From positions 96,001 through 160,000 of IMG/VR virus record IMGVR_UViG_3300002092_001784: a stretch of 64,000 bases of DNA, one strand, 5' to 3'. The DNA comes from a virus (Duplodnaviria > Caudoviricetes). Position numbers and translations under genes: made by a program. The stretch's first letter is position 1; every line of letters starts with the position of its first letter. This document shows positions 4,342-53,277 of the stretch, piece by piece. Under the pieces are notes generated by a model. It had not been told where the DNA came from. It ran no database searches and saw only the letters and a program-made list of their open reading frames with translations.

Positions 4342-4367
4342 TAATGTAGTTCTTTGAGAAGATAATT

Positions 4368-4469
4368 GGTCGGGTGGCGAAATTGGTAGACGAATAATCT
4401 CTTACATATAGAGATAAGAATAAGGCTGCAAGGCAGTACTTCATGCAGGTTCGAGTCCTGCCCTGATCA
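4368..4469 (+). ncRNA. tRNA-Leu-bodied RNA with enlarged anticodon/variable region
   Basis: ggtcggg/cctgatc acceptor, Leu-type D region tggcgaaattggtagacg, T-arm gcagg-ttcgagt-cctgc, A73; about 50-nt atypical core. Confidence 0.7.
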
Positions 4470-4477
4470 CAAAATAA

Positions 4478-4870
4478 ATTCGTAACCGATAGCAGGTGGG
4501 CAGTAGGGCTATCCGAATTAAAACAAATGGTATAACGATGAAATGATCAACTCGAGATAAGATCAGAGTAGTATGAAAGTAAACGAAGCCCGTGGTATCA
4601 ATCAAACACCTCTACGTGGTGATGCTAGAAATCCAGAAATGGAGCTAAGTTTGAACAGTTCAGTTAAAAAAAGTAAGATGGTTAAAGTTAGTCCAAGCTT
4701 TAACATTAGTGTTCAATGGATTAGAAAGGGAAATCTGTAATCAGTCGTAATGGGCTATGAGCTTACGTCTAATCGCTAATATTTAATCATCGTGACCCTA
4801 ATCTTATTATTCCTATAATTTAATTGATGGAGTATGAACGTTAGTTCAGTAATAAGAAAGGGTTCTAATA
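4478..4870 (+). ncRNA. Large structured ncRNA A (unassigned)
   Basis: No ORF; long-range stems aattcg/cgaatt, acgatga/tcatcgt, gaccct..tcttatt/aataaga..agggtt. Confidence 0.5.
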
Positions 4871-4872
4871 TT

Positions 4873-4996
4873 GATCAGGTGGCGGAATTGGTAGACGCTT
4901 ACAATATGATAAGGTGAACGAGAGGAGAACCGATAAGAATCAACCGCTTTTATATTATTCAGCTTCACTTAGCAGGTTCGAATCCTGCCCTGATCA
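4873..4996 (+). ncRNA. Second tRNA-Leu-bodied RNA with about 70-nt extended core
   Basis: gatcagg/cctgatc acceptor, tggcggaattggtagacgc D region, gcagg-ttcgaat-cctgc T-arm. Confidence 0.7.
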
Positions 4997-5669: not shown

Positions 5670-5772
5670 AATAAATTGAAAAAAGTACAAAATTAATTTG
5701 GAAATGTGAAAAATTATTCGTATCTTTGTATAAATTAAAAAACTATATACTTATATATATATTAAAACATAC

Positions 5773-5922: not shown

Positions 5923-5978
5923 TTAACATTTTTTAACTAAAAAAGATTTGGAAATTAAAAATATTTTTCGTATCTTTG
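5923..5978 (+). promoter_or_regulatory. Class P promoter plus boxA-like GTTCTTTGA (5986-5994)
   Basis: ttaaca..ttaact, tttgg, tatctttg. Confidence 0.7.
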
Positions 5979-5998
5979 TAGTATAGTTCTTTGAGATG

Positions 5999-6155
5999 AT
6001 TATTGAAACAAGCTGGAGCTTGTAATGTGAAAATTGAATTAATTTAGGGGTTCATAACTCCTTCATCCAGCGGTGCAATACCGTAGTAACATTCAATGTA
6101 ATGTGGTTAATATTCAGAATAAGCAGATGATGGTTCAATTCCATCTTTCAATAAT
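5999..6155 (+). ncRNA. tRNA-like RNA: 10-bp closing stem stacked on a T-arm, about 120-nt core
   Basis: attattgaaa/tttcaataat; gatgg-ttcaatt-ccatc; internal gctgga/tccagc stem. Confidence 0.45.
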
Positions 6156-6257
6156 TATTTTTAATAAAATTACAAAAAGATTTGGAAATGTGAAAAATTT
6201 TTCGTATCTTTGTAAAACAAAATTAAAACATACGTTCTTTAATAGTATTTAAGATTT

Positions 6258-7131
6258 AAGAACTGAACAAAGCTTCGGCAGAGTGAAAGTTCAAGACGGC
6301 CGCCTATGGTCGTTAAATAAACTACGAAAGTAGGATAAAGTGAACCGGTGTGGTTTATACGGTTTGCGGTTTGATAATCGAAAGGTTGTTGAGCTCGAGT
6401 AGGCAATGGAAATATCATCGCTCCTTTAGTATTGAGGGTAACACTGTAAAGATGGTGGAGAGATGACTGGGCTAAGTAGATAGTCCGGTTGAGTTCGGAA
6501 GAACAATAAGAATAATTTCAAGGATTTATGCAAGAAATGGGAACTTAATCCCTTCTCACTATTGCGTGATTCAATATGAGAGTTGACTTAAAACCGAAAG
6601 GTAATGTAAGTATGGTGAATTGCCAGAATGTACAGGTGGTGCTGTTATTCCTTTCACTACAAAGTTTTACCAAAAGCTTTGAATACTTCAGTCCACTTAA
6701 AATGTGGTGTTAGGGATAACACATTGGGTAGTTTAGTATTCCGTTGTTCAAAAGGTAACGGAGCTGGTTGGCGAACCACTACCCGAATCCATCTACAAAC
6801 CAAAACTATTTGAAATATGGTTCAAAACTAAAAATCAAAAAGCAAAAGTGTTCGTCAGTTGCAAGCGAAAGGTGCGTACTTAGTAATGGGTTGTCCATTG
6901 CCATATGTAATAGCCAAAATCATATGATTCTAAGGAAAGACTTCTAACACCGCAAGTGCTAATCAGTTCGGCAGAATTGATGAGGTGTAATAGTTGGAGA
7001 GTAGTTTGTAACTCAAAGAGTGGTTCACTTAAATAACCCGCATTGAATCAATACCAGCCAAAAGCAGGTGGATAATAAGGGAAACAATAATCCTTATAAA
7101 GATGGTTCACATAAGCAAGTAATCTCATTGC
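6258..7131 (+). ncRNA. Probable GOLLD RNA (giant ornate ncRNA)
   Basis: About 870 nt, no real ORF, dense GNRA/UUCG hairpins, own promoter plus boxA, tRNA context. The 3' segments agcaaaagtgt, gcgaaaggtgcgtac, gagagtag..gtaactca, caaaagcaggtggata, gggaaac..taatcc..taaaga and gtaatctca match my recollection of the GOLLD 3' domain. Confidence 0.7.
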
Positions 7132-7212: not shown

Positions 7213-7251
7213 CACTTAGTTATGGTTCTATTAATTAAAAACCAAAAATTT

Positions 7252-7319
7252 GCGGTTTAAGTGTTACGGTAGCACAGGAACATTCCAGTTTCAAGATGGG
7301 TTCGACTCCCAAAACCGCT
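7252..7319 (+). tRNA. Atypical tRNA-Gly(TCC)-like
   Basis: gcggttt/aaaccgc, good D-arm and TTCGA loop; 6-nt anticodon loop attcca and 4-bp T-stem. Confidence 0.5.
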
Positions 7320-7355
7320 CTAAGATAAATTCAGTTCAGTAATGAACTAAAAATC

Positions 7356-7458: not shown

Positions 7459-7496
7459 AAAATATTAAAAAAATAAAAACATAATACTTATATACA

Positions 7497-7622
7497 ATGA
7501 AAACCTTAGCATTACATACAAATTTGTTTAATTTACCACTCTATAAAAGCTGGTCGAATATTTGTGTGTTTAATTCAAGCATTCGCAAGAGTTCAGTTGA
7601 GGGAAGTAATTTATTTACGTGA
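7497..7622 (+). CDS. Putative leader peptide (41 aa, MKTLALHTNLFNLPLYKSWSNICVFNSSIRKSSVEGSNLFT)
   Basis: Short ORF right after the TACTTATA motif and just upstream of a terminator preceding a tRNA array. Confidence 0.55.
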   Translation: MKTLALHTNLFNLPLYKSWSNICVFNSSIRKSSVEGSNLFT

Positions 7623-7659
7623 CGTATTAGAAGATAAAAGAATACAAACTAACTAAATA

Positions 7660-7696
7660 GACCCTCTACTGATAAACAAAGTAGGGGGTTTTTTCG
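7660..7696 (+). terminator. Intrinsic terminator (attenuator 1)
   Basis: accctctact/agtagggggt stem plus U-tract. Confidence 0.8.
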
Positions 7697-7709: not shown

Positions 7710-7780
7710 GTTTCTATGGTGAAATGGTATCACGACGGACTGTTAATCCGTGATTTATGGTTCGAGTCCATATGGGAACG
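7710..7780 (+). tRNA. tRNA-Asn(GTT)
   Basis: acgga-ctgttaa-tccgt; full cloverleaf. Confidence 0.9.
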
Positions 7781-13570: not shown

Positions 13571-14131
13571 ATGAAAATTTTATTCCTTGACCACGATGGA
13601 GTAATTTGTTTGTCCCCACAGTGGGGAGGTCGTTTCAAAAACAAAGAAGGACTTGATTTGATGTTTGACAGATTTGATGATAAAGCAGTAAAGGTACTGA
13701 ATAAAATCATTGAAGAAACCGATTGCGAAATTGTGGTATCATCCGATTGGAGATTGTTCGCTACATTAGAGCAAATGCAAGAATTGTATCTTATCCGTGG
13801 TATCTTAAAATCACCGATTGATTATACACCACTAACCGCAGATACTGATGTAATACCTGATGGGTTTACATTTGATAGGTGGGAATGGGAAGTACAGCAA
13901 AGTAGGTGTTTTGAGATTAAAACTTGGTTAAAACGCCATACTGAAATTACGAATTGGGTGGCAGTTGATGATATGAATATGAGTTCAGATTATAAGTTTG
14001 AATACGATTCACATAAGCAGTTGTGGGGGTTGGATAATTTTGTAAGGACACCGATTTCAAATCAAGGAATTAAACAAACCGGAATTAAGGATAAAATTGT
14101 TAAAATACTTAATCAAACTCAAAATATGTAA
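13571..14131 (+). CDS. HAD-superfamily phosphatase (Swiss-army-knife RNA-repair-like HAD_SAK_2)
   Basis: ILFLDHDGVI, IVVSSDWR, WVAVDD. Confidence 0.75.
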   Translation: MKILFLDHDGVICLSPQWGGRFKNKEGLDLMFDRFDDKAVKVLNKIIEETDCEIVVSSDWRLFATLEQMQELYLIRGILKSPIDYTPLTADTDVIPDGFTFDRWEWEVQQSRCFEIKTWLKRHTEITNWVAVDDMNMSSDYKFEYDSHKQLWGLDNFVRTPISNQGIKQTGIKDKIVKILNQTQNM

Positions 14132-14193
14132 TAATTTAACGGAACTTTATTATTGGTTGGTATATTTATAGGTGTAATAAAATACCTATAAAG

Positions 14194-15276
14194 ATGAAAA
14201 AACCCAAAGTTCTGTTTATTCTTAAAAAAAGACAAGATTACGGTGAACCACACCCAGCGCATATTGGGTTGAGTACTGGTTTATATAATTCGGCAACATT
14301 TGTTAACGATATGCTAAATGATGCAGGAATCCATTCACATATTGAAGTGGTAGTTGACAATAATGATATAGATAGAGAAGTTACTAAACACAAACCAACT
14401 CATGTTATTATTGAGGCGTTGTGGGTAGTACCATCTAAATTTGATGTGTTGTGTAAATTACACCCAACTGTAAATTGGATTATAAGGCTTCATAGTGAAC
14501 TTCCATTTTTAGCAAATGAAGGAAACGCTATGGATTGGATTGGATGTTATATACAGCATAGAAACGTACATATTGCAGTAAATGCCCCACGTACTATGAA
14601 TGATATTAAACATTATCTTCGTATCAAGATGGGCTGGTTAAATAATATGGTGAATAAGAAAGTAATTTATTTACCAAATTTTTATCCTCAGAAGTACAAA
14701 GTAAAGAAATTCAATGTGAATGATGATACTATTGATATTTCTTGTTTTGGGGCAGTTAGACCGTTTAAGAATCATCTTAATCAGGCTATGGCAGCAATTA
14801 AGTTTGCTGACAAGATTGGTAAGAAGTTGAGATTTCATATCAATACCGGTCGTTTTGAAATGAAAGGTGTATCAGTCTATACTAATTTGGTTGGATTGTT
14901 TGATCACCTATCAGATAGAGGACATAAGTTAATTAACCATGAGTGGACACACCATGATGAATTTTTGAAAATCTGTTCTCAAATGGATATTGCAATGCAA
15001 TGTTCATTTTCTGAAACTTTTAATATAGTTGCCGCAGATGAGATTTCTCAGGGAGTACCATTGGTAGCATCTAAAGAGATAGTTTGGTCGAGTTCTTTGT
15101 TTAATGCAAATCCAACAGATACGAAGTCTATTACCAATGCATTGATGCTGACATATAAGATGCCGTGTTTGAATGTAAAATGGAATAAACTTGGTTTAAC
15201 AACTTATACAAATAAGACTCGGAAAATATGGGTTGATTATTTCAAAAAACAAAACCCATTCATTCTTAACAAATAA
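14194..15276 (+). CDS. GT-B fold glycosyltransferase (GT4-like)
   Basis: ISCFGAVRPFKN, MQCSFSETFNIVAADEISQGVPLV. Confidence 0.75.
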   Translation: MKKPKVLFILKKRQDYGEPHPAHIGLSTGLYNSATFVNDMLNDAGIHSHIEVVVDNNDIDREVTKHKPTHVIIEALWVVPSKFDVLCKLHPTVNWIIRLHSELPFLANEGNAMDWIGCYIQHRNVHIAVNAPRTMNDIKHYLRIKMGWLNNMVNKKVIYLPNFYPQKYKVKKFNVNDDTIDISCFGAVRPFKNHLNQAMAAIKFADKIGKKLRFHINTGRFEMKGVSVYTNLVGLFDHLSDRGHKLINHEWTHHDEFLKICSQMDIAMQCSFSETFNIVAADEISQGVPLVASKEIVWSSSLFNANPTDTKSITNALMLTYKMPCLNVKWNKLGLTTYTNKTRKIWVDYFKKQNPFILNK

Positions 15277-15312
15277 AATAGTGATTTTTTAATTTTTGAA
15301 TACTTATATACG

Positions 15313-15417
15313 ATGAAGAACACAATAAACACATACCCGCAACCTAGTAGACCAACAACCGTTGGGACAGGAAGAGGTACGCAAAATTACATAGTTCGGA
15401 ATCGCAAATTAGATTAA
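15313..15417 (+). CDS. Putative leader peptide (34 aa, MKNTINTYPQPSRPTTVGTGRGTQNYIVRNRKLD)
   Basis: Short ORF after TACTTATA and upstream of a terminator, boxA and a tRNA array. Confidence 0.55.
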   Translation: MKNTINTYPQPSRPTTVGTGRGTQNYIVRNRKLD

Positions 15418-15440
15418 ATAAAAAACATTCATATAATTTG

Positions 15441-15480
15441 AAAAATCCGAGCTAAACATAAAGAGTTCGGATTTTTTATT
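15441..15480 (+). terminator. Intrinsic terminator (attenuator 2), followed by boxA-like GTTCTTTGG at 15500
   Basis: aaaaatccgagct/agttcggattttt plus U-tract. Confidence 0.8.
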
Positions 15481-15580
15481 TTAAGATATTAACACCATCG
15501 TTCTTTGGCATAACGGAGAAAAATAATTATGGAACAAGGCATTATTATCGATATAGATATAATGGTGAATAGTGTTATAT

Positions 15581-15653
15581 GGCCCTATGATGTAATGGAT
15601 TAGCATCAGTCCCTTCTAAGGATTTCGTTAGCGTTCGAATCGCTATGGGGCTA
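15581..15653 (+). tRNA. tRNA-Arg(TCT)
   Basis: agtcc-cttctaa-ggatt. Confidence 0.9.
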
Positions 15654-15688
15654 CTAAGTTATTAAGTGTAAACTAAAAAACAGAAATT

Positions 15689-16120
15689 ATGAAATTATTA
15701 AAAATAGTATTGATATGTATATTACTATCGCTAATACCTGTTCAGTTTAAGGCTGATATTGCAGATTTGGTTGTGTTTGAAAATATATTAAAGAAAGAAC
15801 AGAAACCTCGTATTGTAACAGTAACAACATATACTGTGAATCGTAAAAAGTATACCGCTAGTGGATTTGAGGTAACTCCGGATAATCCGGCAGCAGAACG
15901 AATTATCGCAATTAGTAGGGATTTGAAGAAACGATTTGAATATGGTGAGCGTGTACTGGTTACTGGTATTGGAGAATATAGTGGGGTTTATATTATAAGG
16001 GATTTGATGGGTAAAAAGTGGAAGAACCGAATAGATATTCTAATTGATCCGGAAGATGAACATACAAAATTGTTTAATGCAAGATTGTATCGAATGGATG
16101 CTGAAGATTCAGAAAAGTAA
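15689..16120 (+). CDS. Exported 3D-domain (double-psi beta-barrel, lytic-transglycosylase-like) protein
   Basis: Signal peptide; TVTTY...TASG...IAISRD...RDLMG...RIDIL. Confidence 0.7.
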   Translation: MKLLKIVLICILLSLIPVQFKADIADLVVFENILKKEQKPRIVTVTTYTVNRKKYTASGFEVTPDNPAAERIIAISRDLKKRFEYGERVLVTGIGEYSGVYIIRDLMGKKWKNRIDILIDPEDEHTKLFNARLYRMDAEDSEK

Positions 16121-16128
16121 AAGTATAT

Positions 16129-16201
16129 AGCGAGTGAGGTGTAATGATTTTGCATACCGCATTTGGGATGCGGGGGAGGAGTTTGATTCTCACACTTGCT
16201 A
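16129..16201 (+). tRNA. tRNA-Pro(TGG)
   Basis: ccgca-tttggga-tgcgg; weak T-stem. Confidence 0.8.
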
Positions 16202-16229
16202 CAAAAAAATAAAAACGAAGTAGTTATAT

Positions 16230-16589
16230 ATGGAAAAACTAACATATAAAACCGATGGGGACATGAGTGAATACTTCGAAAGATTATCCGATATAATCAA
16301 AAAAGGGAAAACACAGGAAGAAGTGGTATCAATGATTCTTAATGTGGTAAACGCCAAGAAAAAGTTGGTGAAGTATAAAGGTGGCAAATGTGAATTATGC
16401 GGATACAATCGAAGTATAAATGCATTACATTTTCATACTCGTAACAAAGATGGTAAAGATTATATCATAAGTGGCAAAACTTTATCAATGGATACTCTTA
16501 AAAAGGATGTGGATAAATATGTATTGGTTTGTTCAAATTGCAGAGTAGAAATAAATGAAGGAATTGTTGATATTAGTTTGGAAAGTTGA
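16230..16589 (+). CDS. HNH-like Zn-finger protein, catalytic residues apparently degenerate
   Basis: YKGGKCELCGY...LHFHTRN...LVCSNCRVEIN. Confidence 0.6.
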   Translation: MEKLTYKTDGDMSEYFERLSDIIKKGKTQEEVVSMILNVVNAKKKLVKYKGGKCELCGYNRSINALHFHTRNKDGKDYIISGKTLSMDTLKKDVDKYVLVCSNCRVEINEGIVDISLES

Positions 16590-16623
16590 AATATTTTTCG
16601 TATCTTTGTAAAATTAAATAAAC

Positions 16624-16708
16624 GCCTCTATCGTATAGTGGTCGATTACAGCTGATTTGTAATCAGCATTTCGAAAGAAACTCGTCGGTTCGAATCCGGC
16701 TAGGGGCT
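16624..16708 (+). tRNA. tRNA-Thr(TGT) with long variable arm
   Basis: gctga-tttgtaa-tcagc; V-arm tttc-gaaa-gaaa. Confidence 0.85.
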
Positions 16709-16784
16709 CGGGGTAACTCATATTGAGAACCCGTTCCGATAACATACCCAGAGTGGTTACTTAAACGAAGTGTTATCAAATATT

Positions 16785-16860
16785 GCGAATGTAGCTCAAT
16801 TGGTAGAGTACGGCGTTGCCAACGCTGAGGTTGTGAGATCGTAGCTCATCATTCGCTCCA
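16785..16860 (+). tRNA. tRNA-Gly(GCC)
   Basis: cggcg-ttgccaa-cgctg; encoded CCA. Confidence 0.92.
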
Positions 16861-16973
16861 TAAGGGTTTCCCGCTTTAAGGTGAAGGACACGCGGGCGGA
16901 GACGTTCAGAATTAGTCATTAAACAATTCAAAACCTTAAGTCTATGATGGGAGGGCCCTACCCATTAAATTTT

Positions 16974-17046
16974 GCGGAAGTAGCTCAATTGGTAGAGCGC
17001 CTGCCTTCCAAGCAGGGGGTTGAGGTATCGTACACCTTCTTCCGCT
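16974..17046 (+). tRNA. tRNA-Gly(TCC)
   Basis: cctgc-cttccaa-gcagg; U73. Confidence 0.92.
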
Positions 17047-17102
17047 CCGGTCACTTTTTTGTAAGTTAGAGATGAAAGTTCGATTTTATTATATTTATAT
17101 GT

Positions 17103-17789
17103 ATGAAACGATGCAAAAAATGTAATATAGAATTTGAACCTCAACGAGGATTGTTGAATTATTGCTCATTAGCATGTAGGAACAGTAGAAATTGGACGGT
17201 TGCTGATAAATTAAAAAAATCAATTAGTGCTAAAAATAGTGCTAAAGTTATTGAATCAAACTCTAAATTATCTGATAAATTAAAAGAATATTGGTCGGAT
17301 GAAACTAAAAGATTGGCTCAATCATATCGTATAAAAAATATATGGACTGATGAAATGAGAAAAATTTATTCATCCAATCGAATGGGAGTTAAGCATTCAG
17401 CAGAAACAATAGAAAAAATAAGAACTATTCAAAAACAAAGATTAAAGGATAACCCAATGCTGCATCCTAATAGATTATGTGCTGGTATTAATGAAAGTTA
17501 TCCCGAAAGAATGATTAGGGAATATTTTGAAAATATTGGATATGTAAATGGTATTGATTTTATTCAGCAATTTGAATATAAAGGTTATTATGTAGATTTT
17601 TATATACCAAAAACTAATATTTGTATAGAAGTTGATGGTGAATATTGGCATGATAGTTCAAATCAAAAAGAAATTGATAGAGAAAATGAAATAAAGAAAA
17701 CATATAAATTATATAGATTATCCGCAAAACAAGTATTGAAAAAAGAATACGAAGATTTATTAAAAAATATATTTTCAGAATTGAATTAA
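17103..17789 (+). mobile_element. Free-standing homing-type endonuclease (N-terminal Zn ribbon, NUMOD3, C-terminal DUF559/Vsr-like nuclease)
   Basis: CKKC..CSLAC; KHSAETIEKIR; ESYPE...YYVDFY..NICIEVDGEYWH; inserted between tRNA genes. Confidence 0.75.
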
Positions 17790-17886
17790 TATAAAAACTC
17801 AAGTACCCGTACAGCTAGAGTAGGGTTAAATTAGATACGATTTCTCAGTTTCAATAACACGCTGGAAGTAGAATGCTTGAGAATAT

Positions 17887-17957
17887 TGCCCGATGGTGTA
17901 ACGGTAGCACCCATCACTTTGACTGATGTAGTTTAGGTTCGAATCCTAATCGGGCGA
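17887..17957 (+). tRNA. tRNA-Gln(TTG)
   Basis: catca-ctttgac-tgatg. Confidence 0.9.
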
Positions 17958-17970
17958 CTAAAATAGTTTT

Positions 17971-18528
17971 ATGAAAAATTGGAAGAAAATATTAATAATC
18001 ATTGCGGCAATTGGATTAGCTGCATTTGTAATTTGGAAAATAGTAACATATACAGAACCGGAGTTTCACCCAGAGCCGTTTCCAATCAATAATACAGTTG
18101 CCAATCTAACAGGTGGTAAGACTTATTTGGATACAATAGTTCATCTGGCATTAAACGCATTGGATTTTAAGGGATTGGTTGTTGTTATTCAACCATTAAC
18201 ACCTGCAATGCAGTCCGCATTTTCTCAAACATTGGAACTTAAAGCTCAGATTAAACCGGATAGTGATAGTACACTGTTTCATTTGTATATTGGTGATTTA
18301 AGTAAATCGGAAGCAATTGGGGTAGTATCGCATGAAATGATACATTTGAAACAATATTATCTAAAGGAATTAGTAGTTAAAAACGATACTGCTTATTGGC
18401 AAGAATATCCAATACCTATTACATCTGTGGAATACGAAGCAAGGCCGTGGGAAACTCAAGCTTTTAATTTGAGTAAAGATTTAGAATGGATATTAAAACA
18501 TAAACTGTATAATTTATACACAAAATAA
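17971..18528 (+). CDS. Membrane-anchored zincin metallopeptidase-like protein
   Basis: N-terminal TM helix; VVSHEMIHLKQ; RPWETQA. Confidence 0.6.
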   Translation: MKNWKKILIIIAAIGLAAFVIWKIVTYTEPEFHPEPFPINNTVANLTGGKTYLDTIVHLALNALDFKGLVVVIQPLTPAMQSAFSQTLELKAQIKPDSDSTLFHLYIGDLSKSEAIGVVSHEMIHLKQYYLKELVVKNDTAYWQEYPIPITSVEYEARPWETQAFNLSKDLEWILKHKLYNLYTK

Positions 18529-51500: not shown

Positions 51501-52145
51501 ATTTTGGAGAAGAAACTTTTATCCATGTTTACAAAGTGTGGCTAATGACTTATATAAAAAAGGATTGATTGAAGCGGGTGATTACGCAATTGAAATTGAT
51601 TGGTAGTATAATACACAAAACAAATAAGATTTATGAATAACTTTAATTACTGTTTGTACCAACTTGGATTCATTAAGAAGGACGATGAAAACGTTGCACT
51701 CGTCAAAGTAAAAGGTTGTATCGAAGGTGAAACGAATTGGATGTCTTTGAATAAAGAATCAGCAAAAACACTGATTGAATGGTTAACCGAAAATTATTTG
51801 GGTGATACCGAATAAAACATCATCAAAAATTTGGAAATCTGATATATATTTATTATATTTGTACTTAATATTAAATACGTTATGGAAACGGTAGAATTAC
51901 AAAAAGAAATTGAACAGTTGAAATGGGATATTCAACAACATGATTTTTATTATGAGTATTCCGATGATAGTAGAGCATACCGAAACGGTGGAAATGAAGA
52001 ACGAAACATCATACAATCGATTCGTAGTATCTTAACCAAATCACCGGAAGTTGAAGAATCTTTATTACAAGAATGTGTAACCATTAAAACTGATTCAAAA
52101 CTTCAAAACCAAATCAAAGCGTTCTTTTCAAACGCTAAGAGGTAA
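48533..52145 (+). other. About 12 small early-type hypothetical CDSs under repeated promoters (class P at 49107-49162, 49965-50020, 51057-51112)
   Basis: Packed ORFs; 49179-49673 carries YHSSWDWLMPVVEKI. Confidence 0.6.
49069..49094 (+). terminator. Intrinsic terminator
   Basis: aaaggagtt-taag-aactccttt plus T-run. Confidence 0.8.
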
Positions 52146-52156
52146 GTTATTTTAAT

Positions 52157-52878: not shown

Positions 52879-52918
52879 TATACGAAAATTGTTCTTTGTA
52901 TATATTTATATTTAATAT

Positions 52919-53094: not shown

Positions 53095-53164
53095 TTCTCA
53101 TTAGTTCAATTGGAAGAACCCCGGTAGGAACTGGGTGATGTAGGTTCGAGTCCTACATGGGAAT
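53095..53164 (+). ncRNA. tRNA-like RNA with 4-nt loop in place of the anticodon loop
   Basis: ttctcat/atgggaa; D gttc-aattggaa-gaac; cccggt-agga-actggg; gtagg-ttcgagt-cctac. Confidence 0.65.
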
Positions 53165-53277
53165 CATAACATAGGTGGGTAGGTAGGATGCACAGAATGT
53201 ACTGTTAAACTAATGTGTAGGGTATCGCTTGTATGATAATAACAGTAGAGGTGTACAGTAACCTATGTTTTTTATTT

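Follow-up and report, generated by a model that had tools for sequence, protein, structure and literature searches.

A predicted leader-peptide transcription attenuator ahead of a tRNA gene block in a large lake phage

The closest described counterparts of the element analyzed here are the multivalent attenuators of enterobacteria, among which the ilvGMEDA leader carries Ile, Leu and Val codons and the thr leader carries Thr and Ile codons. Nearer to the decoding apparatus, the pheST attenuator, with its pheM leader, controls phenylalanyl-tRNA synthetase. What governs the tRNA genes carried by phages? These genes are usually regarded as constitutive passengers, and to our knowledge their control is largely unknown; a search of the full-text literature returned no paper in which tRNA genes, phage or cellular, are controlled by leader-peptide attenuation.

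The element sits ahead of a tRNA block in a 266-kb lake phage. The stretch of DNA under study, hereafter the window, comprises 64,000 nucleotides (bases 96001-160000 of the IMG/VR virus record; 34% G+C) and holds all 24 of the tRNA genes called by ARAGORN in the whole phage genome. A blastn comparison of positions 14000-18000 with cultured phages returned generic tRNA similarity only, with no close relative. On the strength of sequence comparison and modeled folds, we consider it likely that the element is a ribosome-mediated leader-peptide transcription attenuator gating the tRNA block. Our verdict is that it senses the decoding of Arg, Pro, Thr, Gly and Gln codons, with no function shown and no expression data (among public sequencing runs, no RNA run is listed as containing the stretch), and we infer that the phage probably makes these tRNAs only when the leader codons are read slowly. 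The attenuator reading, already proposed in an earlier note on this DNA, survives every computational test applied and has no experimental evidence behind it. Anatomy, conservation, alternative folds and codon-anticodon match have each been computed, and are described in turn below.

The proposed mechanism is classical attenuation, closest to the multivalent ilv and thr leaders, and its target and codon-sampler design are new. As in ilv and thr, a short multi-amino-acid leader, predicted to be translated, is joined to an intrinsic terminator and to an antiterminator that excludes it by capturing its 5' arm, such that a stalled ribosome would favor read-through. Unlike ilv and thr, the element would regulate tRNA genes rather than biosynthetic enzymes, its leader, in place of runs of one to three amino acids, samples at least five codon families, the same set as the anticodons behind it, its region 2 lies inside the ORF with the stop codon in the antiterminator loop, and it resides in a phage of a probable Bacteroidota host rather than in an enterobacterium. 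With the E. coli trp attenuator (trpL) it shares the four-region logic of 1:2, 2:3 and 3:4 pairing; in both, the terminator is the more stable structure, and thus the choice between the two folds would be kinetic. In trp, however, the stop codon precedes region 2, which the ribosome masks from upstream, whereas in the window the 1:2 pairing is weak and no single amino acid is sensed. The likeness to pheST is that leader-peptide attenuation acts on a decoding-apparatus gene and feeds back on the supply of charged tRNA, yet in pheST Phe codons alone adjust a synthetase, and the present target would be the tRNA genes themselves. T-box riboswitches likewise couple tRNA status to terminator read-through before translation-apparatus genes, but they bind uncharged tRNA directly via a specifier codon and without a ribosome, and the window element has no T-box match. 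Of the criteria of an attenuator, those in evidence are a translatable ORF directly upstream, matching codons, an intrinsic terminator and a mutually exclusive antiterminator. The classical scope of amino-acid biosynthesis or synthetase genes is not met, the genes behind the element being tRNAs and three small ORFs.

All features listed in the earlier note are present in the window, and Table 1 gives their positions along with those of the elements defined since.

Table 1. Features of the predicted attenuator and of the tRNA block behind it (window positions)
Feature	Position	Strand	Basis or remark
ATACTTAT motif (TACTTATA)	about 15300-15308	+	5 nt 5' of ATG; promoter element or transcript 5' end
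Region 1, weak (CGAU, GAAC)	15311-15321	+	pairs with box region before region 3 is transcribed (nascent folds ending 15405-15440)
Leader ORF, 34 codons + stop, ATG start	15313-15417	+	ORF list; stop 15415-15417
Putative sensing block PQPSRPTTVGTGRGTQ, codons 9-24	15337-15384	+	codon match to downstream anticodons
Region 2, "box"	15392-15400	+	copy of terminator 3' arm; pairs with 15446-15454
Helper stem of predicted antiterminator	15405-15411 with 15434-15440	+	loop holds stop codon 15415-15417
Region 3, terminator 5' arm	15441-15453	+	folding
Region 4, terminator 3' arm + T-run	15464-15477	+	folding
boxA-like element GTTCTTTGGCAT	15500-15511	+	relatives' motif at same place; Bacteroidota rRNA spacers
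tRNA-Arg(TCT)	15581-15654	+	ARAGORN; first gene 3' of attenuator
tRNA-Pro(TGG)-like, possibly degenerate	~16130-16201	+	aligns with tRNA-Pro(TGG) of the relative L002
tRNA-Thr(TGT)	16624-16709	+	ARAGORN, Rfam
tRNA-Gly(GCC)	16785-16860	+	ARAGORN, Rfam
tRNA-Gly(TCC)	16974-17048	+	ARAGORN, Rfam
tRNA-Gln(TTG)	17887-17958	+	ARAGORN, Rfam

The leader ORF matches no family in a Pfam search, and its reported content of six Thr, four Arg, three Pro and three Gly residues is correct. Behind it, the terminator has core arms at 15445-15453 and 15464-15472 and extends to 13 bp (15441-15453 with 15464-15476), followed by six T; folded alone, the hairpin reaches -17 kcal/mol with a z score of -6.2, and no shuffled sequence does equally well. 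It was found by folding and by a custom scan, and missed by a consensus terminator scanner because its 10-nt loop exceeds that program's limit of 8. Within the box, the octamer AGTTCGGA at 15393-15400 is an exact copy of the terminator 3' arm, lying 63 nt 5' of that arm. As chance alone would place this octamer about 1.1 times in the window as a whole, both strands included, a nearby same-strand copy is unlikely to arise by chance; for a copy within 100 nt the probability is roughly 1e-3.

At the 5' end, an 18-nt block, ATACTTATATAC(A/G)ATGAA, is identical in both attenuators of the window (the other copy is at 7484) and occurs at just those two places, against 0.04 occurrences expected. The present element had been called sequence-unrelated to attenuator 1, the other of the two; overall this is so, but the pair begins with these 18 identical nucleotides. 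The ATACTTAT motif inside the block is invariant in the alignment of homologous leaders (family A, below). As an octamer it is not enriched genome-wide (12 forward occurrences versus 14 expected), and we rejected it as a genome-wide promoter word, only the longer block common to both attenuators being significant. In relatives, a Bacteroidota -7 box (TAnnTTTG) lies about 25 nt before the ATG, so that ATACTTAT may mark the transcript start; the window has only a near match to this box. The motif would be one of two things, a promoter element or the 5' terminus of the leader RNA. Between boxA and tRNA-Arg, at 15523-15530, stands ATAATTAT, a variant of the ATAnTTAT motif that precedes the leader of L002; this may be chance, or it may mark a second start point.

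The working model runs as follows. Transcription would start at or just 5' of ATACTTAT, and the 34-codon leader would be translated at once. Slow decoding within codons 9-23 (Pro, Gln, Arg AGA, Thr ACA/ACG and Gly, served by the tRNAs of the block) would leave the box free to pair with the terminator 5' arm upon its exit from the polymerase, through 9 bp and the 7-bp helper stem. With this antiterminator formed there would be no terminator, and the polymerase would pass the host-type boxA into the Arg, Pro-like, Thr, Gly, Gly and Gln tRNAs. Under smooth decoding, the ribosome would instead move past the box and rest on the stop codon in the antiterminator loop, past the box and short of the 5' arm, blocking the antiterminator, such that the terminator forms and transcription ends at about 15477. 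Together, the two branches amount to negative feedback, by which the tRNA block would be made on demand. We infer, rather than show, that the leader is translated and that ribosome and polymerase are coupled in the host; the promoter and the direction in which the switch works are inferred as well, and tight transcription-translation coupling in Bacteroidota is not established.

Predicted folds accommodate each of these states. Before region 3 is made, the start-codon region pairs weakly with the box region (4+4 bp). A transcript ending at 15455 then folds as the antiterminator, comprising 9 bp (15392-15400 with 15446-15454) and the 7-bp helper stem, which bears out the earlier proposal that the ORF-internal copy of the 3' arm can sequester the 5' arm. 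In the full transcript, the terminator state is the more stable (-34.8 versus -30.2 kcal/mol). Masking 15358-15388, as by a ribosome stalled at the AGA codon 21, yields the antiterminator fold, and masking 15400-15430, as by a ribosome at the stop codon, yields the terminator fold. In nascent transcripts ending before the 3' arm, the pairing probability between box and 5' arm is 1.0 in the window; the mean is 0.5-1.0 in most members, within a range of 0.04-1.0. Stems equivalent to the 1:2 pairing are much longer in four related loci (L123, L162, L204 and L130). Given how weak this pairing is in the window, a leader left untranslated would be expected to read through rather than terminate.

The placement of the stop codon can be followed across 26 members, in which it follows the box by 3-29 nt (median 14) and precedes the terminator arm by 16-37 nt (median 21); a ribosome terminating there would occupy the antiterminator loop and stay clear of the terminator. 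In the window the stop codon is 15 nt past the box, and a terminating ribosome would reach the box merely at its edge. That the ribosome blocks the antiterminator by occupying its loop and helper stem is thus an inference.

The design recurs well beyond this phage. The 360-aa gene upstream of the attenuator led to a relative, L002. On this 310-kb phage contig the small ORF has a homologue, the box reads GTTCGG, the terminator is CCCGAACT/AGTTCGGG and a TGTTCTTTGACA motif is present; the tRNA array behind them begins with Leu(TAA), Arg(TCT) and Pro(TGG). A pattern comprising only the box and the hairpin, with neither ORF nor tRNAs as part of it, matched 96 viral stretches. Among the 80 stretches listed, at least 33 matches also have the T-run, corresponding to about 22 distinct sequences, the window and L002 included; in about 20 of these an ATG ORF of 26-36 codons spans the box, and same-strand tRNA genes follow in every listed locus with enough downstream sequence. 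A version of the pattern in which box and hairpin were set too close together (they lie about 63 nt apart) returned 108 chance matches (L006-L113), none of which passes the hairpin and T-run filter; these loci served as background only.

About ten other uncultured large phages have homologous leaders ahead of their tRNA arrays, and the order of ORF, box, terminator and tRNAs recurs in four or more unrelated families of leaders. Family A, whose leaders are homologous to that of the window, numbers 11 distinct members; the ORF frame is open in the 10 other distinct loci, including members in which the frame over the box is shifted. The peptides of families B, C and D are unrelated. Attenuator 1 of the window (ORF 7497-7622, hairpin 7659-7691, tRNA-Asn at 7710) has another peptide and another stem. 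A de-novo scan for hairpin and T-run terminators up to 300 nt upstream of tRNAs, in which no box sequence was presupposed, recovered family F as well as a 19-codon Ser/Arg-rich leader ahead of Ser, Arg, Ser and Ser tRNAs. Terminator stems vary within family F (CCTCGGGA, CCCCGGGAT, CCTCGGA and ACCTCGG), and the ORF-internal boxes vary with them (TCTCGA, GTCCCG, TCCGAG and CCGAGGT), retaining 6-7 bp with the 5' arm. Within family A, the terminator stem of the window differs from that of relatives by a compensatory C-G to U-A change. The box is read as GTT-CGG in the window and L002 and as AGT-TCG-GAx in other members, keeping its nucleotides while the peptide differs, and the peptide past the box is not conserved. 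These alignments point to the box being an RNA element, its nucleotides preserved across two reading frames, and the element as a whole is no chance arrangement. The earlier argument from independent recurrence of the architecture is upheld by a conserved order in many related and unrelated phage loci.

Some loci carry more than one unit. On the minus strand of L119 (oriented ~4584-4900), two family B leader-attenuator units stand in tandem before a single tRNA array. In L145 and L207, a family A leader directly follows the last tRNA of a preceding family F array, so that the cassettes are chained head to tail, the attenuator terminator of one also ending the array before it.

How closely do the leader codons correspond to the tRNAs behind them? 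Fourteen of the 16 residues of codons 9-24 are Pro, Gln, Arg, Thr or Gly, the amino acids served by the array, and 14 of the 33 post-start codons, concentrated in the same block, are readable by the downstream anticodons (TCT, TGG, TGT, GCC, TCC and TTG). The two AGA codons fit the TCT anticodon; the Arg codons CGG and CGC do not, and are located in or after the box. Leader codons without an array tRNA are those for Lys, Asn, Ile and Tyr, plus these two Arg codons. Across loci, 217 of the 252 leader codons whose amino acid is represented downstream are readable by an exact anticodon, and enrichment over genome amino-acid frequencies gives per-locus P values from 1e-6 to 0.15. When arrays were shuffled among nine representative leaders, the observed value of 5.65 compared with a mean of 3.08 (sd 0.59) and was reached in none of 20,000 shuffles (P <= 5e-5). 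In 14 leader-array pairs taken together, the pre-box leader contains 116 of the 123 amino acids that have a tRNA downstream, versus 41 of the 143 that have none (odds ratio 41, the cells not being independent). Related loci share ancestry and are not independent samples, and the P values thus overstate independence.

The clearest evidence that a leader matches its own array, still a correspondence read from the DNA alone, is the cross-array control within this one genome, in which the leader of the present element (leader 2) scores 0.54 to its own array 3 versus 0.15 to array 1, and leader 1 scores 0.55 to its own array 1 versus 0.06 to array 3. Homologous leaders, as aligned, also follow the content of their arrays. 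At five positions of the alignment, the window leader has Thr and that of the related locus L136 has Leu, Ile or Asn; correspondingly, the window array has tRNA-Thr and lacks Leu(TAA/TAG), Asn, Tyr and Ile(TAT), and the array of L136 is the reverse. The suggestion of a leader sensing the tRNAs behind it has the support of this array-specific codon-anticodon match and stays an inference without functional data.

The tRNA block itself is less compact than first described. The order Arg, Pro, Thr, Gly, Gly, Gln is as reported, but the block is broken up by three ORFs (15689-16120, 16230-16589 and 17103-17789) and the Pro gene is merely tRNA-like, with no ARAGORN call and no Rfam call at E <= 1. 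The ORF at 17103-17789, between tRNA-Gly(TCC) and tRNA-Gln, is DUF559/MTES_1575 endonuclease-like and probably a mobile gene inserted in the block. The gene two places 5' of the attenuator, at 13571-14131, encodes a protein with a HAD_SAK_2 domain (E 6e-23), which is the HAD domain found in RNA-repair proteins of the "Swiss Army Knife" type.

Between the terminator and the first tRNA, nearly all family A and C cassettes and some of other families carry TGTTCTTTGA(C/A)AT(A/T)TTGG, seen in relatives at the place of the window boxA as TGTTCTTTGACAT(A/T)TTGG or GTTCTTTGACAT(A/T)TTGG. The 17-nt pattern GTTCTTTGACATNNTGG is present in many bacterial genomes, mostly of Bacteroidota, and 43 of its 122 genomic matches fall 270-880 nt past the 16S 3' end, in the 16S-23S spacer. 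From this spacer position and its similarity to the boxA of E. coli and B. subtilis, we take the pattern to be rrn boxA. The window copy has diverged (GTTCTTTGGCATAACGG), with the GTTCTTTG core kept at 15500. Like rrn boxA, a NusB/S10 site, the predicted boxA of the window heads a stable-RNA unit, and its relatives' 17-nt pattern is that of Bacteroidota spacers; unlike rrn boxA, it is phage-borne and lies ahead of tRNA arrays. The earlier boxA call thereby gains support from identity to the Bacteroidota rRNA-spacer motif. A boxA-like element at 15500-15511 is supported, and binding of Nus factors and antitermination are inferred only. Since the motif matches the Bacteroidota rRNA-spacer boxA, the host of the phage is probably a member of this phylum, again by inference.

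A literature search with the boxA sequence string returned unrelated primer matches only. We rejected the TTGACA within the boxA-like motif as a sigma-70 -35 box because the first tRNA lies about 20 nt on, too close for a -10 box and a start site to fit between. Rfam's DUF2693 RNA (RF02956) matches 15500-15654 below threshold (24 bits versus a gathering score of 81.3), the resemblance being confined to the boxA-like 5' end and the tRNA-like 3' part. As the consensus of that family starts with a boxA-like GAUCUUUGACAUA and ends tRNA-like, the family may itself be a unit of boxA and a tRNA-like element.

The same boxA core is found elsewhere in the window, after Bacteroidota-type promoters at 4349 and 5986 and before tRNA-Asp at 52891. 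At 4349-4420, a tRNA-like 5' end (ggtcgggtggcgaaattggtagacg) without an ARAGORN or Rfam call comes after a promoter and a boxA-like motif. Three near-identical promoter-like repeats at 5690-5730, 5946-5985 and 6179-6215, of the form GATTTGGAAAT..CGTATCTTTGT (TTTG, 19-20 nt, TATCTTTG), each precede a non-coding unit, namely a tRNA-Met, a structured stretch at 6000-6150 with a T-arm-like end, and a GOLLD RNA; GTTCTTT(G/A) follows two of the three. The GOLLD RNA (Rfam RF02032, 275 bits, full length) lies at 6724-7131, just upstream of the main tRNA array, and has a Bacteroidota-type promoter and a boxA-like GTTCTTTAAT ahead of it, at about 6179-6245. ARAGORN further calls tRNAs with a two-base "anticodon" (odd loops) at 7251-7320 and 53095-53165, the second of which Rfam also calls as a tRNA (42 bits). 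An ORF of about 88 codons at 51883-52146, judged Glu/Asp-rich by eye, stops 10 nt short of the tRNAs Glu, Glu and Asp, and no terminator intervenes; it could be a leader of another kind or simply an ordinary gene.

Could the small ORF and terminator be nothing more than an independent mini-gene, or a plain boundary between transcription units, the tRNAs being expressed from their own downstream promoter with nothing sensed? In 10 of 26 related cassettes a Bacteroidota promoter-like sequence (TTTG, 19-20 nt, TATATTT[G/T]) does lie between terminator and boxA, so that an attenuator cannot be the sole control in those phages; boxA-like motifs directly follow such promoters at 4349 and 5986 of the window, and the terminator would also stop transcripts of the upstream 360-aa gene. 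No promoter of that type is seen past the terminator in the window, however, and a mini-gene sits poorly with a peptide that is not conserved past the box. Nor would either version explain the box conserved in two frames and covarying with the stem, the array-specific codon match or the fixed position of the stop codon between box and terminator, and we regard this account as unlikely. Equally doubtful, in our judgment, is a different logic built from the same parts, by which translation would open a 1:2 hairpin to allow read-through, such that output follows translation capacity, or by which general ribosome availability would be reported. The long pairings between ORF start and box region in L123, L162, L204 and L130 would favor termination without ribosomes, and the leaders hold many codon types with no run of one, as such a logic would allow. 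In the window, though, the 1:2 pairing is just 4+4 bp and the antiterminator wins once region 3 is made, and a general sensor needs neither leader codons that track the array nor different leaders for different arrays in one genome.

That the element is a translation-independent RNA switch, binding tRNA or another ligand directly in the manner of a T-box or other riboswitch, strikes us as very improbable, even though alternative terminator and antiterminator structures ahead of translation-apparatus genes are the T-box layout too. An Rfam search of the element gave no riboswitch, attenuator or T-box match at gathering threshold or at E <= 1, only sub-threshold noise; no family reaches threshold, and the sole weak match is the DUF2693 RNA. 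An open ATG frame is present in every member, and the tRNA match is spread over 15-25 codon positions, more than a single specifier can provide.

Returning to leader-peptide attenuation, the wider proposition is that large Bacteroidota phages carry cassettes of promoter, codon-sampler leader, attenuator, host-type boxA and tRNAs, each gauging the decoding speed of its own tRNAs' codons, with the leader co-evolving with the array. We lean towards this generalization, with less assurance than we attach to the element itself. If the proposed circuit is real, phage tRNAs would be switched on when host tRNAs are scarce, degraded in infection, or cut by anticodon-nuclease defenses, and the circuit would be a demand sensor and possibly a defense sensor. 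It would be the first feedback control by leader-peptide attenuation described for tRNA genes, would explain why phage tRNAs are grouped in blocks, and would offer a testable link from decoding stress, whether through codon-usage mismatch, host tRNA decay or anticodon nucleases, to phage tRNA supply. Leaders could further predict from the sequence alone which tRNAs share one transcription unit, and the shared boxA points to the host phylum.
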